Source of the DNA: a virus
Lineage: Duplodnaviria; Caudoviricetes
Virus record (IMG/VR): IMGVR_UViG_3300012953_000227
Span: 1-24,001 of that record
Strand: one strand, 5' to 3'
DNA: 24,001 bases
A model generated the notes under the pieces. It made no database searches. It saw only the letters and a program-made list of their open reading frames with translations, and was not told the DNA's origin. A program made the position numbers and the translations under genes. Shown one piece after another: positions 5,078 to 23,738 of this stretch. Each line of letters opens with the position of its first letter. Position 1 is the first letter of the stretch.

Positions 5078-5332
5078 TTATAAACGAGTTAGTATGCCCA
5101 TAACGAGCAATGCAGCCGCTGCCGCGTTCATAATCATTAGTGCTCGGTCATGCCAAATGATGGCTACAATGAGCCATCCGATGGTGCCATTGAGCGTAAG
5201 TGCCATGTCTAAAACGGTGTGATAGTCGGCTGCACGTATCGACAGCCCGATCATAATAAAAGCGGTAGAACACCACTTCAGCCACCAATCAAACGTATGT
5301 GTTGGCGTAACTTTTTTTATCATTCTTGTCAT
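5078..5332 (-). CDS. small multi-pass membrane protein (DUF6552-like)
   Basis: KKVTP...DWWLKW...GWLIVAIIWHDRALMIMN. Start moved to ATG 5332 because the upstream part of the track ORF is a structured RNA and terminator. Confidence 0.75.
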   Translation of the reverse strand: MTRMIKKVTPTHTFDWWLKWCSTAFIMIGLSIRAADYHTVLDMALTLNGTIGWLIVAIIWHDRALMIMNAAAAALLVMGILTRL

Positions 5333-5345
5333 TATTCGCTCTCTT

Positions 5346-6575: not shown

Positions 6576-6900
6576 CGTCTATTTCCTGTAAAACGTCACA
6601 CAAGAACTGCAGCCCCGGGGGTGTAATCTTCCAAAAGTTTGTCCAATCGTTGCCTACACCTGTTGTTATCAGACCGCAGCAGGCTAGCATCGCAACTACA
6701 TCTGCGTGCTCTCGCGCTACGTCGCTTTTTGTTGTAAATCCTTCGAAATGTGCTCTGCCAAGTATCTCCATAGCTTGACGATCATTGTCAGTGGGTTGTT
6801 GCCCAGCTGCGTCCGACACTAAAGTCGGCGTCAATTCTGCACCGGAATTCAAAGTCTTCGCCCGCTTTTTGCGCGCTTCTTCTAATGATATTACCGACAT
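6559..6900 (-). CDS. T7 gp5.7-like protein (start uncertain: 6900, 6918 or 6771)
   Basis: KSDVAREHADVVAMLACCGLIT...WKITPPGLQFL parallels T7 gp5.7 as recalled (QSNYVRNNASLVAEAASRGHIS...WEITASGTRFL); same position, between DNA polymerase and exonuclease. Confidence 0.7.
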   Translation of the reverse strand: MSVISLEEARKKRAKTLNSGAELTPTLVSDAAGQQPTDNDRQAMEILGRAHFEGFTTKSDVAREHADVVAMLACCGLITTGVGNDWTNFWKITPPGLQFLCDVLQEIDDEKEE

Positions 6901-8506
6901 CTTCTTCTTTTCCTTCACGAACCGCTACTTGAACTTCATCATGAACCCAAGCACTAAACACATAATCTGCGCCCCAACCATGCGAAAAGCCCTGTGTTTT
7001 CAAGTCTTTACGCGCGTTTATGAGCCATTGTTTAGATATAACGGCTCCCGCACTTTGCAATAAAATGTTGAGTGCACTATGCGAACTGCGTGGGAAGAGC
7101 TTGCGCTCGTCTAGGCCAAGTAAGTGGTTTTGTGTTTCGAATTTTTCTATTACGGCGTTTCTAAGTTGTTTAATTGCAGGCATGCTAGCGAAGAATTTTT
7201 CGCGTATTGCCTTGCCCGCATCTCGACCTTTGCCAATAACTTCACCTAGCTTTGCATCGCCTGCGCCGTAAATAAGCGAATAAATAAATGTCTTCGCACT
7301 ATCACGAGTTGGCAAGCCTGCTGCTTCTTGGTTGCTAGTGTGAATGTCGCCGGTTAGCACGGCTTTTGTATATGCTCCATTGTCCCAATGGCTTGCATAA
7401 TGTGCCAAGCATCTGAGTTCGAGACCAGACAGGTCAACACCGACGAGTCGCCAACCAGCGGGCACGGTAAAGCAGCTGCGAATTTCTTTGCCGAACGGCA
7501 ACCGCATGCTTGGCACCTGTGCCATGTTTGGTCCGAAATGAGTTGCTCGTCCAGAGACTGCACCATTTGGTATGTACCTTCCTCGAAGTAAGTTGTTTTT
7601 GTCGACCAGCTTTAAATAGCCTTGGTCGCCGTCTGCCAACATTGCTAAACGTTTTTCCAACATGAAATATTCGGAAAGCATCTGTGCTTCCGGATAATCA
7701 AGATCGTTGAGTATGTTCTCATCAATTTTTGGACTGCCTTTTGGCGTTAAATGCTTCGGCTTCCAATTGTATTTGTTAATGAGTGCATCAGCGATTTGCT
7801 GCCGTGATGACGGATTAAACGGTATTACTTTCGTTTTAGTTTTTAGTTGAATAACTTTTGGTTCAAACGTCTCAGCCATTTTATTGCTGATCTCGTCGCG
7901 CTTTTGGCTTAATTCCCCGTAAAGTTCTGCGGCTGCTTTTTTGTCAAATACAAAACCTGTTTCTTCGATGTCCGCACAAACATAAGCAATGTCATGTTCG
8001 ACGCGCAGCGCATGTTTCGCAGGCTGTTTTTCAATTAAGTTATCGTACAACTTGCGAGTAACGACTACGTCCTGCTCCATATATTTGAGCATGTCTTCGT
8101 TGTACTCTTCAAAGCCGCCTTCATATTCATCTTTATATTCTGATAGCCTATGGCCCCATGCTTTCAAACTATGGCTTCCATACAGCTTCAGAGGCATGCC
8201 GTCATGCCGATCTATAAAGTCTTTGTCTTTCAAGCCTGAATAAACAAGGCGCGAAATAACTAGTGTGTCGATCACATTTTTTTCGACAAAATCAGGATAA
8301 ATTTTCTTAATAGCTTTTAAGTCAAAGCCGATGATGTTGTGGCCGATAAGCACATCAGCATTTGCTAACGTGTTAATAGCTTCATCTATTTCGTCTGGCT
8401 TGTAGCTTTTAGTAAAATCCGAGTCTAAATCTTGTACGGCAATGCAATGGATTTTTGTCATTGAGTCGACAAAATTGTCTGTCTCAATGTCGAAAACTAA
8501 TCTCAT
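6788..8506 (-). CDS. family A DNA polymerase, T7 gp5-like
   Basis: Exonuclease motifs FDIET and HNIIGFD; polymerase motifs DLSGLELR, RDSAKTFIYSLIYGAG, VHDEVQ. Confidence 0.96.
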   Translation of the reverse strand: MRLVFDIETDNFVDSMTKIHCIAVQDLDSDFTKSYKPDEIDEAINTLANADVLIGHNIIGFDLKAIKKIYPDFVEKNVIDTLVISRLVYSGLKDKDFIDRHDGMPLKLYGSHSLKAWGHRLSEYKDEYEGGFEEYNEDMLKYMEQDVVVTRKLYDNLIEKQPAKHALRVEHDIAYVCADIEETGFVFDKKAAAELYGELSQKRDEISNKMAETFEPKVIQLKTKTKVIPFNPSSRQQIADALINKYNWKPKHLTPKGSPKIDENILNDLDYPEAQMLSEYFMLEKRLAMLADGDQGYLKLVDKNNLLRGRYIPNGAVSGRATHFGPNMAQVPSMRLPFGKEIRSCFTVPAGWRLVGVDLSGLELRCLAHYASHWDNGAYTKAVLTGDIHTSNQEAAGLPTRDSAKTFIYSLIYGAGDAKLGEVIGKGRDAGKAIREKFFASMPAIKQLRNAVIEKFETQNHLLGLDERKLFPRSSHSALNILLQSAGAVISKQWLINARKDLKTQGFSHGWGADYVFSAWVHDEVQVAVREGKEEDVGNIIRRSAQKAGEDFEFRCRIDADFSVGRSWATTH

Positions 8507-8517
8507 GATGCTCTCCG

Positions 8518-10140
8518 TTAAAATGGTACGGAGTCATCGAACACATATTCTCGCAAACGACCTGTGTCTTGGCTGTAAGTAAGCTCTGTGCCGACGCCAG
8601 TGTCGCCTGTAAATCTGTTTTTAACGACGCGTACTATTGTTCTGTTTTTTTCGTTTGATTGTTGGTCGCGTTCTAAAGCAATAACAAGGTCTGATAACTG
8701 ACCAATGCTATGACTGCCTCGGAGGCTGTTTAAAGACACCTGAAGACCATCCTCAAAGCCTTTATTGCCTTCAGGTCGCCTCAGATGACTCACTAACAGC
8801 AGGCCCACCCCTGTCTCTTCAACAAGTGTGCGCAGCCGTGTCATGCAAACATCGATAGCTTTGCGCTCATCGGCTATGTCTAGCCCACTTACTACAATCG
8901 AAATGTGGTCAAGTATGATCCATTTGCAATCGAGACCTTTAGCAAGATAACGGATCTTATTAATTATGTTATCAATACTGCAGCTGCCAAAACTATCGTA
9001 AAAATAGCAGTTTTCGTTTTTGAAAACTTTATTAAAGGCAGCTTTAAGTTCCTTGTCTTCGACCTTGTGTTCCTGCGTGTGGAGCAGCTTATTGAGTTCA
9101 ATGCCAATAAGTCCCAACGCAGATCGTTTGACGCTTTCTTCAAGTGCAATATATCCAACTTTTTCTCCGTGTGTTAGAAGATGGTGAGCGCATTCACGGA
9201 CGAAGGCGGACTTGCCAATCCCAGATCCTGCCGTGACCGTTACTAATTCGCCCTGTCGCAAGCCTCTTGTTATGTTATTTAGCTTGTCGAAAGGGTACTC
9301 GATGCAAGGCGCTGCTTCCTTGCTGCTCACCACTTCCCATGTATTATTGGCAGCGATTATGCCGTCTGGTCTGTACTGCGGTGCGTTCCACGCGGCAGTG
9401 ACCAGATCTTTAATACGACCGGCTTTAAGCATGTCGTTAGCATCTTTAAGTTCGAAACTAGCGATGTGTGCTTTGCCAGGTTCGAGCACTTCGGCGCACT
9501 CTTTTGCAGCAGTGCGCCCAGGCTCGTCGTTGTCAAACATGAAGACAACTTCATTAAACCGTTGCAGCCATTCTAGTTCACGCCTCACAGCCTTAGCTGC
9601 ACTTTGGGCGCCCCCTGGAACACTTACAACAGGCCATTTATTACCTAAAACTTGGCTTAGGCTCATGGCATCTATTTCGCCTTCACAGACAAAAAGTCTT
9701 TTACCTTTGTTTTGAATTTGCTGACCGAAGAAAGGCAAATTTGTGCCATCTCCGACAATTGAGAAGTCTTTGTTTTGACCACGCGTTTTGACAGCAACCA
9801 TTTTTCCGTTACGGTAATAAGGCGCGAGATGTCTTGACGCACCCACTCGATAGCCAAAGTGACGGGCTGTATCTGCCGTAACACCTCTTGCTTTAAGCGG
9901 GCGCGTTTCCCCTTGCGCGTATAAGTTTTCGTGCTGCGTACTACTCGTTTTCTGTATATCTTCGAACATAGTGCCTTCGCATATTTGTTGTGCTTCATCT
10001 TCGTTCCCTCTGTATGTGTGACAAGAAAAACAGTAAGTGTGACCGTCCGAATACAAAGAATTTGCGTCGCTGCTACCGCACGCTTCACATGGAACGTGTT
10101 TCAAAAAATGCGTCGTCGATGAATCCTGTGTTTCCGTCAT
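8518..10140 (-). CDS. primase-helicase, T7 gp4-like
   Basis: Zn ribbon CEACGSSD...CFSC, TOPRIM EGEIDA/FDNDEPG, Walker A AGSGIGKS, LDHIS, LRGS, KNRFTG. Confidence 0.96.
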   Translation of the reverse strand: MTETQDSSTTHFLKHVPCEACGSSDANSLYSDGHTYCFSCHTYRGNEDEAQQICEGTMFEDIQKTSSTQHENLYAQGETRPLKARGVTADTARHFGYRVGASRHLAPYYRNGKMVAVKTRGQNKDFSIVGDGTNLPFFGQQIQNKGKRLFVCEGEIDAMSLSQVLGNKWPVVSVPGGAQSAAKAVRRELEWLQRFNEVVFMFDNDEPGRTAAKECAEVLEPGKAHIASFELKDANDMLKAGRIKDLVTAAWNAPQYRPDGIIAANNTWEVVSSKEAAPCIEYPFDKLNNITRGLRQGELVTVTAGSGIGKSAFVRECAHHLLTHGEKVGYIALEESVKRSALGLIGIELNKLLHTQEHKVEDKELKAAFNKVFKNENCYFYDSFGSCSIDNIINKIRYLAKGLDCKWIILDHISIVVSGLDIADERKAIDVCMTRLRTLVEETGVGLLLVSHLRRPEGNKGFEDGLQVSLNSLRGSHSIGQLSDLVIALERDQQSNEKNRTIVRVVKNRFTGDTGVGTELTYSQDTGRLREYVFDDSVPF

Positions 10141-10486
10141 GATCTGGTGCTCTCCAATCTTCGGGCTTTATTAAATCCCAACCTCCAGTGTCTGGACGTG
10201 TAGGTTTAATGCCTCTTATTTTTGACATGTTTGCATCGTGCACTTCGTCCCACGCCTGCTGTATATCAACGCCGGCAATGGCGAGTGTGCCTAAAGCAAA
10301 AACTGTTAAATCGATAAGTGCGTCTACGGCTTCTTCTGGGTTGCCAAATTCTAAGGCGCTTTCATATTCGCCTAATTCTTCTTTCATCATGTCGTAACGC
10401 AAATGCAGCTTGTCGAGTGTTAGTTTTTCTTTTTGAAAACCGTATTTAGCTTGCAGCGCGTAAATGTCAGCTACTATCGTGCTCAT
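10085..10486 (-). CDS. MazG-like all-alpha dNTP pyrophosphatase (DR2231/PRA-PH type), candidate dCTPase/dUTPase
   Basis: EELGE...EAVDALID metal-binding motif, VHDANMSK, KPEDW. Confidence 0.85.
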   Translation of the reverse strand: MSTIVADIYALQAKYGFQKEKLTLDKLHLRYDMMKEELGEYESALEFGNPEEAVDALIDLTVFALGTLAIAGVDIQQAWDEVHDANMSKIRGIKPTRPDTGGWDLIKPEDWRAPDHDGNTGFIDDAFFETRSM

Positions 10487-11770: not shown

Positions 11771-11784
11771 TTGCGCTTCTCTCC

Positions 11785-11979
11785 TTACGCTAAAAAGTAT
11801 TCGCTATATCTGGTACCACGAGTGTCAACTCTTTCGTTGCGTTTGATGTCCATGCCACGCTGACGTAATTTGCTAATCATAGCTGTCAGGTTTTGAACAT
11901 CGAACTCGTGCATCGCAATAATACGCGTTACCTTTTTACCTCGTTTAAGGTGGTCAACTAGGTTGTTCGTTTTCTTCAT
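11785..11979 (-). CDS. small winged helix-turn-helix protein
   Basis: HLKRGKKVT...A...F....L...IS.LR..G..I...Y pattern; basic, 64 aa. Confidence 0.75.
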   Translation of the reverse strand: MKKTNNLVDHLKRGKKVTRIIAMHEFDVQNLTAMISKLRQRGMDIKRNERVDTRGTRYSEYFLA

Positions 11980-15772: not shown

Positions 15773-15837
15773 TGGCGCACCGGGGAAGATTCGAACTCCC
15801 GACCCCTTGATTCGTAGTCAAGTACTCTATCCAGCTG
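15773..15837 (-). other. attP core: 3' 65 nt of tRNA-Arg(ACG), 5'-truncated
   Basis: Minus strand CAGCTGGATAGAGTACTTGACT-ACG-AATCAAGGGGTCGGGAGTTCGAATCTTCCCCGGTGCGCCA. The 5' acceptor strand (expected GCACCGG) is absent. Adjacent to the integrase 3' end. Confidence 0.92.
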
Positions 15838-21777: not shown

Positions 21778-22431
21778 TTAGTTAAAAAGATCTGGTTCGT
21801 AGCTAAAGCTGGGTTGTATAGCTGAGTCACTCGTTGCCATATCTGTAGAATTATTTAGGTCTTCAACAGCTTGATAAATACCAGCGTATGTCTTGCCAAA
21901 TTCTTCTTTGCGTTGATCGTTAAAGTAGTCGCATGCATATAACAATGCGCCATAAACAACGAGATCAGGTGCAATGATTGACAAAACGTTTGTGCCTGTA
22001 TTGGTTGTAAGCACGGCCGGATCGCTGTGATAAATTAGGTTAATTATAGTTCCTGCGTCAGGCGCAGGCTTAACTACAAAGTTGTTTTGGATTCTTGTGT
22101 AATAACGAGGCTTACCACTAGACGGCACAGATCCCGTAAGTTCAATAAATTGTCGCAAAGGCACTCTTTGTAAAATACGATCATCTGTATACAAATAAAC
22201 AGTTTCTAAAAAGTCGCCTGGTATTGATAATTCTTGTGTTGTCGTGTTGAAGACTGTTTGCGCTGAAGTACCCACAATTGCCGTGTATTTTGACTCTAGC
22301 GATGGGATACGCAGAGTCCGCGCAATATTTCGAACAGCTTGATTTACAAAAGTGCCTGCAAGTGTATCGGTGCAGTCTGTTCTGTTAATTAAGTTAATTA
22401 CGTCTGTTTTTAGGTCTGCAAAAGTGGCCAT
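21778..22431 (-). CDS. putative head-tail adaptor protein
   Basis: MATFADLK..V....NR.D, R.LR, GKPRYY, PAPD, PDL..YGAL pattern; downstream of the capsid gene. Confidence 0.7.
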   Translation of the reverse strand: MATFADLKTDVINLINRTDCTDTLAGTFVNQAVRNIARTLRIPSLESKYTAIVGTSAQTVFNTTTQELSIPGDFLETVYLYTDDRILQRVPLRQFIELTGSVPSSGKPRYYTRIQNNFVVKPAPDAGTIINLIYHSDPAVLTTNTGTNVLSIIAPDLVVYGALLYACDYFNDQRKEEFGKTYAGIYQAVEDLNNSTDMATSDSAIQPSFSYEPDLFN

Positions 22432-22727
22432 TATAATCTCTTAGTGCTCGTTAAAAATCCATCCATGTCATGATTATTAAGCCACTTAATAATGTCCTTT
22501 ACAGGCGCTTTATAAACGTCAATGCCTTCGCGTTGCATGTGTTCGACTACCGCCACAGGTATGCTTGCGAGCTTGACCATTTCGCCACTAGCTGTAACGC
22601 CGTTTGACTCATGTTTTTCGTCATGCAGTTGCTTTAAAAATGATGCTGGTATGTTTTGTTTGGTGACGCGAAAAAGGTCGTCGCCCTGCTGTGCGATAGT
22701 AAAATCGCTATCAATAAATTTTGTCAT
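22431..22727 (-). CDS. conserved hypothetical protein downstream of capsid (ASIP.....W/M motif)
   Basis: AAAGGT RBS before ATG 22727; KLASIPVAVVE...KWLN; TAATG coupling to the adaptor. Confidence 0.75.
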   Translation of the reverse strand: MTKFIDSDFTIAQQGDDLFRVTKQNIPASFLKQLHDEKHESNGVTASGEMVKLASIPVAVVEHMQREGIDVYKAPVKDIIKWLNNHDMDGFLTSTKRL

Positions 22728-22738
22728 GTCTAACCTTT

Positions 22739-22796
22739 TAGGTAGAGGTGCCCGCGAGGCAAAGGAGAGCAAAATCCCCGCGGGCACACTTACCTA
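22739..22796 (-). promoter_or_regulatory. capsid 3'-UTR hairpin with anti-Shine-Dalgarno loop
   Basis: Minus strand TAGGTA-AGT-GTGCCCGCGGGG-ATTTTGCTCTCCTTTG-CCTCGCGGGCAC-CTC-TACCTA; no U tract. Confidence 0.7.
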
Positions 22797-23738
22797 GCTG
22801 ATGTAACGGAGCATGCCTGAAGACTTGTAATTAGCGTGCTTCAGACCGTATTCGGTTACCATCATGTGAGTGTCCGCATCACCGGTTTTAGCAAGCAGTT
22901 CGCGCGTCATTGGGCGAAGCTCACAAATTTTCCAGTTCTCCGGATCATAAAGAAGTGCGGTTGATGTCTTGATAAAGCGGTTCATCACGACGCGATACTC
23001 GCCGTAGGGCGAAATATAAACGTCAACCACGTTCATCAATGTGCGACCACCGTTAACAAAGTGCTCTTGACGAGCGTTACCTGAGCCAACAGCAGAACGC
23101 GTAAATCCTGCAATGACCAAAGAGTCAGCTGGCTTAATCATAAGCACTGAAGCTGTTGCTCCTTCGTCATATAGCTTGTCGCCAAGGTTTAGGATGTCTT
23201 GTTCCGTTAGGGCTGCAGCAGTACTGTTAGTACCTACATCTTCGATAACGGCAGAGTTAATAACAGCAGCTGATCCGGCGTCATTACCGTGAATATTTGC
23301 TGTAAACCGAGCAGTTGTGGCGTTACCGGCAGCAGCGTTGTTACCACCAGTAGTACGGTCACCAACCAAGTTAAATTCAATGTCTCGCTTAAACTCAGCG
23401 GCTTTCTTCGAAAGTTGATACGCTGTTTCTTGTGCGCGTCCGTAAGCATCTACAGCATCGTTAGTGCCAGAGATTTTTACGGTTTTCGATTGAATTTGGG
23501 TGTGGTTTGAACGCATTGTGGTTGGCGACAGTGTTGCACTGCTAGCCGTAAAGCCTTCAACTTCTGCATTTTCTGCAGTCGAGGCAAGAGAATCTTCTTG
23601 CCATTGAAACAGAGTGTTATGAACACTCTCGGTGCCGATTGAACTTAGGAAAGGCGTCGTTGTTGGCGAAATATTTGAAATAATATCGCTGACGTCTTCC
23701 TTCAGACCAACCTGCGTATATGTTTGATACGTAGCCAT
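22794..23738 (-). CDS. major capsid protein, SU10/DUF5309-type (not T7 gp10-type)
   Basis: VGLKEDVSDIISNISPTTTPF...WQEDSL, NHTQI..K...ISGT, E.KRDIE, LAKTGD signature. Confidence 0.9.
   Translation of the reverse strand: MATYQTYTQVGLKEDVSDIISNISPTTTPFLSSIGTESVHNTLFQWQEDSLASTAENAEVEGFTASSATLSPTTMRSNHTQIQSKTVKISGTNDAVDAYGRAQETAYQLSKKAAEFKRDIEFNLVGDRTTGGNNAAAGNATTARFTANIHGNDAGSAAVINSAVIEDVGTNSTAAALTEQDILNLGDKLYDEGATASVLMIKPADSLVIAGFTRSAVGSGNARQEHFVNGGRTLMNVVDVYISPYGEYRVVMNRFIKTSTALLYDPENWKICELRPMTRELLAKTGDADTHMMVTEYGLKHANYKSSGMLRYIS

Follow-up and report, generated by a model that had tools for sequence, protein, structure and literature searches.

The window, by which we mean the whole stretch of 24,001 nucleotides of phage DNA that was analysed, encodes a T7-like RNA polymerase, a primase-helicase, a DNA polymerase, an integrase and a capsid protein of phrog_1328, with nearly all genes on the minus strand. 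A hairpin occupies the 3' UTR of the major capsid protein gene (hairpin at 22739-22796, gene at 22794-23738, both on the minus strand); it begins at the capsid stop codon and is carried by the capsid mRNA. On its 3' side lies a 98-aa gene (phrog_3982; 22431-22727, minus strand), the ribosome binding site (RBS) of which begins directly behind the stem. Among 307 records of annotated phages the closest capsid has 42% identity, and the cultured relatives HTVC106P and Venkman are without the loop of this hairpin. Just after the integrase gene lie the 3' 65 nt of a tRNA-Arg(ACG) (15773-15837, minus strand), which are probably the attP core. This piece (65-66 nt) is 100% identical to the tRNA of 4 genomes in a sample of 401 drawn from the class to which a Parvibaculum-labelled MAG belongs, an identity that points to an alphaproteobacterial host without pinning down the host itself. 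In five candidate host genomes the hairpin model gave no match (150 candidates scored per genome, without a positive control).

The hairpin is predicted to fold at -33.1 kcal/mol (z-score -4.2), and none of 200 shuffles was equally stable, which bears out the description of a GC-rich hairpin without a U tract given by an earlier, sequence-only reading of this DNA. With the U tract absent, the copy in the window does not have the combination of GC-rich stem and U tract that marks an intrinsic terminator. Its open 16-nt loop (22760-22775, minus strand) reads AUUUUGCUCUCCUUUG from 22775 to 22760 and holds an invariant core, GCUCUCCUU, at 22770-22762; opening the loop is computed to cost 0.37 kcal/mol. 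A pseudoknot with the RBS of the next gene was considered and set aside, as the 3-8 nt linker looks too short, judged by length, to span a stem of 13-17 bp. The motif AGAGC occurs at the RBS of the gene after the hairpin in 0 of 30 clades. In an rRNA-depleted library, in which DNA carry-over is possible, one 588-nt contig (X5, 22641-23208) runs across the capsid end, the hairpin and the start of the next gene, continuing about 100 nt beyond the stem; strand and RNA ends are not readable from such contigs. Contig X8 ends at 22781, inside the stem, and is uninformative on RNA ends because a probable DNA run, X1, also ends inside the stem, at 22776; stretches that no contig covers are likewise uninformative.

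The hairpin is a conserved RNA family in a large group of uncultured phages. A search with the capsid of the window found 75 loci, of which 73 were examined (two stop short of the capsid end); GCTCTCCTT stands in a hairpin loop after the stop codon in all 41 loci with at least 75% capsid identity and in none of the 32 with 53% or less. Two loop patterns led to 153 loci, 149 of which were examined, and 123 of these closely follow a capsid homologue, the most distant one with 38% identity. Loci were also retrieved by capsid alignment searches that used no DNA motif. In the two largest of these sets, which overlap and reach capsids of about 40% identity, the 9-mer core GCUCUCCUU stands 3' of the capsid gene in 78 of 80 viral loci (the two misses are contig ends) and in 71 of 80 metagenome loci (the rest being eight truncated loci and one single-base variant), and it is present in 3 of 10 GTDB loci. 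The loop core is therefore conserved in relatives, where its absence had been named beforehand as grounds for giving up a regulatory role. In a set of 17 divergent copies picked by hand, each of the 13 stem pairs changes on both sides and 92.7% of cells pair; the stem co-variation score is 0.989 as against 0.244 after shuffling. The capsid strand folds better than the reverse complement in 96 of 102 distinct hairpins, which disfavours a function of the antisense strand, and the core is likewise unpaired in 96 of the 102. A covariance model finds one strong copy per genome, and a DNA search with one hairpin as query gave matches only to the 3' arm and U tract. Rfam at its gathering score returned no family for positions 22300-23100 of the window, C4 included, with three sub-threshold matches only; in six relatives it returned group I introns and no family for the hairpin.

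Sites complementary to the loop were counted before start codons across the family, each gene family of each clade contributing a single start region (-20 to -1). Genes were called over all loci by a simple in-house script, which placed some starts wrongly, and the controls were primase relatives and loopless capsid relatives. AGAGC ranked first of the 1024 5-mers before starts, with 48 of 1033 regions against 11 of 1127 in controls that are richer in replication genes and only partly matched in gene families (p = 8e-8, a value that overstates the independence of related clades). The top enriched 6-mers were AGAGCA (31 vs 2) and GAGAGC (24 vs 4). In the hairpin phages AGAGCA reaches 2.46 per kb of start regions as against 0.51 in coding sequence, a fivefold difference, and the controls are not enriched. 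Its reverse complement shows no enrichment before starts, which rules against an orientation-independent DNA site. As a separate observation, GCTCTCC turns up 6 times in 512 kb of hairpin-phage coding sequence and 31 times in 538 kb of that of controls, a scarcity that looks like avoidance of the loop motif.

Counted by clade, AGAGC precedes the gene that we call X in 7 of 8 cases, an 80-95 aa pre-scaffold gene in 10 of 28, terL in 9 of 25 and terS in 5 of 21, as against 2 of 30 for portal, 0 of 32 each for scaffold and capsid, and 25 of 787 for the remaining genes; outside the window, terS, terL, portal and scaffold were named by position, size and synteny with the annotated phage Venkman. 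The conserved candidate targets are head and packaging genes located outside the window, and those in the head module lie on the same strand, 2-7 kb upstream of the hairpin. Gene X and the pre-scaffold protein have no PHROG match, and Atlas gave none or only hypothetical proteins. In the nearest complete genome (99% capsid identity) the start of gene X is predicted to pair with the loop over 11 nt, at a net -12.9 kcal/mol. When 64 decoy loops were compared by energy, the real loop came first only weakly (18 vs 12 of 600), and the mean energies did not surpass those of the controls in strength. No clear G-U wobble signature was seen. The terL sites often coincide with E-E-Q codons at the end of terS, and one clade has the motif in another reading frame. 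Gene X (4417-4809 in L002, with orthologues in L006, L186, L192 and L197) runs into the putative terS in another frame, covering its first 150-190 nt, and the starts of the two genes are about 200 nt apart. In the pre-scaffold gene of L438, L439, L488, L492 and L495, AAGAAGAGCAA also occurs about 10-25 nt inside the coding region, as E-E-Q codons, and this internal copy is found in clades without a site at the RBS as well.

Co-variation of loop and target was followed in a family-edge set of 80 loci returned, of which 71 were examined (nine were already in the set or truncated). The 9-mer core is missing in 33 of the 71, and several of these have variant loops. L550 has the loop CCUCUCUCUCCU and the pre-scaffold RBS AGGAGAGAGAG, an 11-bp match; L574 and L575 have UCUCUCUCCU with the site AGGAGAGA; and in the L498 clade UUUGCUCUCC goes with GGAGAGCA. 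In clades whose loop is ACUCUC, the pre-scaffold site is missing and (G)AGAGU stands before the scaffold gene instead, with a match of only 5-7 bp. Among clades, drawn at 85% capsid identity, that have the pre-scaffold gene, GAGAG or AGAGC stands at that gene in 32 of 46 with a CUCU loop vs 3 of 27 without, on automatic labels of which about nine were judged wrong or unusable before the capsid tree. Where the loop has G at the G-C pair, 28 of 45 start regions carry C in the target, as do 0 of 7 where the loop base is another, and a loop U is accompanied by a target A in 4 of 5 regions; counter-cases are a target A in 14 of the 45 despite the loop G, and a mismatch in L590 and L592, where the loop has C. 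The sequence-only reading had asked whether loop and RBS co-vary in relatives: they do so in part for the variants at pre-scaffold and scaffold genes, and not at the base 5' of the core (0 of 7 and 0 of 5). In L569 a target-like site is present and no loop was found. In a quick capsid tree, carriers of the core loop form two groups apart from each other, and most variants belong to a single subclade adjoining the group of the window. Because the variants cluster in this way, independent events of loop or site change are few, and, the clades being related, p-values overstate independence.

From the structure, conservation, complementarity, enrichment and partial co-variation, we infer that the exposed loop pairs in the cell with a phage-specific RBS class and lowers translation as capsid mRNA builds up, a reading that we hold as moderately probable. 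The loop GCUCUCCUU of the capsid mRNA would base-pair with the class AAGGAGAGC and near variants of it, and more capsid mRNA would mean less translation of genes with a matching RBS. The conserved targets would be gene X, with which the packaging block opens, along with terS, terL and the pre-scaffold gene of 80-95 aa. The capsid start region, in the window as elsewhere, never carries the site. Pairing could take place within one long late transcript, over 2-7 kb, or between molecules. Its purpose would be to hold minor head and packaging proteins scarce relative to capsid protein, and the near-invariant core may be a seed locked by several targets.

The sequence-only reading had pointed elsewhere, to trans repression of primase-helicase and DNA polymerase, by which replication would stop when heads form. 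The DNA polymerase gene (phrog_17; 6788-8506) and the primase-helicase gene (phrog_239; 8518-10140), both on the minus strand, are candidate targets restricted to one lineage. GGAGAGCA occurs three times in the window, at the intergenic polymerase RBS (8509-8516, minus strand), in the primase-helicase start region (10148-10155, minus strand) and on the loop's own opposite strand (22764-22771, plus strand); shuffles lead one to expect 0.56 copies and reached three in 2 of 100. The earlier statement that the exact loop complement precedes these two genes and no other held up, as a count on coding strands finds only those two copies, and by duplex energy primase ranks first and polymerase second of the 36 called start regions in the window. 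The two partial sites reported with them fared differently. AGAGAGC at 5338-5344 (minus strand) does precede an 84-aa ORF (5078-5332), but 11779-11786 (minus strand) is not an RBS, because what comes next is a terminator-like hairpin and no start codon: AAGGAGAG stands there right after a stop codon, and the hairpin, at 11770-11740, is followed by a U tract.

Among relatives, the polymerase site is 12 bp long in G004, AAGGAGAAAC in G006 and GGAGAGU in G019, and among hairpin phages a wider pattern matches the polymerase start region in 3 of 7 cases (0 of 38 in controls) and the primase start region in 2 of 6 (0 of 40 in controls). On this evidence the candidate primase and polymerase sites are more than nothing, yet limited to part of the family. 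The primase site lies within the last codons of an overlapping MazG-like ORF (10085-10486), where it reads TGG AGA GCA, the codons W-R-A; it is present in 3 of 6 long genomes and tracks the W-x-A codons, which provide five of its eight bases. In the window its predicted net pairing energy is -12.0 kcal/mol as against -5.7 for the polymerase site, which is predicted to be partly folded and occluded, at an opening cost of 9.7 kcal/mol. Among clades having the gene, AGAGC stands before primase in 2 of 4 and before polymerase in 1 of 4; the widely conserved sites lie elsewhere, and the loop is unchanged in phages that have neither replication site. What stands of the sequence-only reading is the loop-to-RBS complementarity, in view of the invariant core, the co-varying stem, the top-ranked k-mer and the partly matched variants; its choice of the two replication enzymes fared less well, and that their repression is the main job of the loop seems unlikely. 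Given lineage-restricted sites, the W-R-A overlap and a folded polymerase site, replication shut-off is a possible add-on and not a conserved function of the hairpin. In terms of pairing with head and packaging genes, the lineage of the window may have recruited the primase-helicase and polymerase starts as extra trans targets.

It is rather improbable that the loop is fixed by some other partner, such as a nuclease, an RNA of the host or a protein of host or phage; the hairpin would then serve in termination, processing or 3' stabilisation, with the matches to RBSs arising as by-products. Such a partner would fit a core that is more invariant than its phage targets, the U tract found 3' of the stem in many distant relatives, the 2 to 9 AAGGAGAGC-ATG sites per candidate host genome and the coincidence of some phage sites with codons, but it leaves unexplained the strand-specific enrichment of the exact complement before starts, the absence of the site before capsid, its near absence in loopless relatives and the matched variants. 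That the loop pairs with these sites in order to loop or stabilise the late transcript or to time translation, and not simply to repress, is decidedly improbable. In its favour, the best-conserved sites stand at the pre-scaffold gene and where the packaging block begins, places at which late transcripts could have their 5' ends. Against it, the Shine-Dalgarno sequence falls within the paired stretch, in some cases together with the start codon, and pairing of this kind inhibits translation in icaR and in B. subtilis reporters. It is very improbable that the loop is a decoy of a generic anti-Shine-Dalgarno kind, damping numerous mRNAs of host and phage. CUCCUU does fit every AAGGAG site, and for many start regions the computed energy is -10 to -13 kcal/mol; but GCU, the invariant part, is unlike the canonical 16S tail of one candidate host, and the phage enrichment is specific for the AGC extension. 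A variant 16S tail in the host was also considered as the source of the RBS class and is disfavoured, as one candidate host has the canonical tail (one of five loci inspected was 16S) and the capsid RBS is without the motif.

A broader proposal may be advanced tentatively: the capsid mRNA of a widespread phage family would itself be regulatory, a single loop would fix how much capsid is made relative to minor head and packaging proteins, and targets would be gained or lost in individual lineages by way of AGAGC in the RBS, as here with primase-helicase and polymerase, which would couple head formation to replication shut-off. Protein ratios within one phage late operon are mostly explained by RBS strength or protein feedback. 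If true, the proposal would mean that head assembly is under RNA-only feedback, exerted by the most abundant late message. The family offers exact loop-target pairs, natural variants and, in the capsid RBS, a natural negative control. The hairpin is also a possible marker for a large group of uncultured phages.

Several known systems resemble the hairpin in part. The C4 antisense RNA of phages P1 and P7 has loops that pair with short sites in phage mRNA and controls an antirepressor; its fold is different, and the capsid hairpin has no Rfam C4 match. In the S. aureus icaR mRNA, a pyrimidine motif of the 3' UTR is complementary to the Shine-Dalgarno region and blocks initiation (PMC3868564). 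The capsid 3' UTR likewise has an anti-Shine-Dalgarno motif complementary to an RBS, but where icaR acts on its own RBS, the capsid RBS never matches, and the putative partners are cistrons further upstream, at 2-7 kb, joined in one lineage by replication genes. The Cuckoo/CcsR RNAs of Alphaproteobacteria are 3'-UTR-derived hairpins with anti-Shine-Dalgarno loops CCUCCUCCC, two hairpins per RNA, that lie beside DUF1127 genes and are cut out by RNase E (PMC8034643). Display of such a loop by a 3'-UTR hairpin is shared, but the core here is GCUCUCCUU and not CCUCCUCCC, and unlike the CIN1 subgroup, with its two hairpins and DUF1127, the phages have one hairpin per genome, flanked by capsid and phrog_3982. 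In B. subtilis, distal anti-Shine-Dalgarno 8-mers pair with the RBS and lower expression, which supplies a physical mechanism; these were synthetic 8-mers acting over hundreds of bases, and genes tend to avoid such motifs (PMC12697547). The phage motif, in contrast, is conserved, displayed in a loop and set at kilobase distances. Among the entries listed by literature searches none describes this element, and the passages covered of a review of phage small RNAs have no mention of capsid or terminase (PMC12197685). Six supplementary files of a survey of structured phage RNAs (PMC10690425) gave no match, with an unnamed listing possible elsewhere in that partly accessible source or in the supplement of PMC5737381. 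These comparisons suggest that, while anti-Shine-Dalgarno pairing by a 3' UTR is already known, a capsid-mRNA hairpin matching a private RBS class of other genes appears new.

The capsid region of relatives holds other structured sequences as well. In hairpin-bearing relatives, group I introns lie in or just before the capsid gene in L210 (3287-3572), L215 (3311-3538), L304 (2627-2859), L209 (9456-9680), L399 (95-317 and 458-665) and L410 (9727-9962 and 10235-10514). In the capsid 3' UTRs of L411 and L535, GGGAGAGC and GCTCTCCC make up the stem of the post-capsid hairpin and not its loop, and in that of L543 a tRNA-like sequence stands directly behind the capsid terminator.
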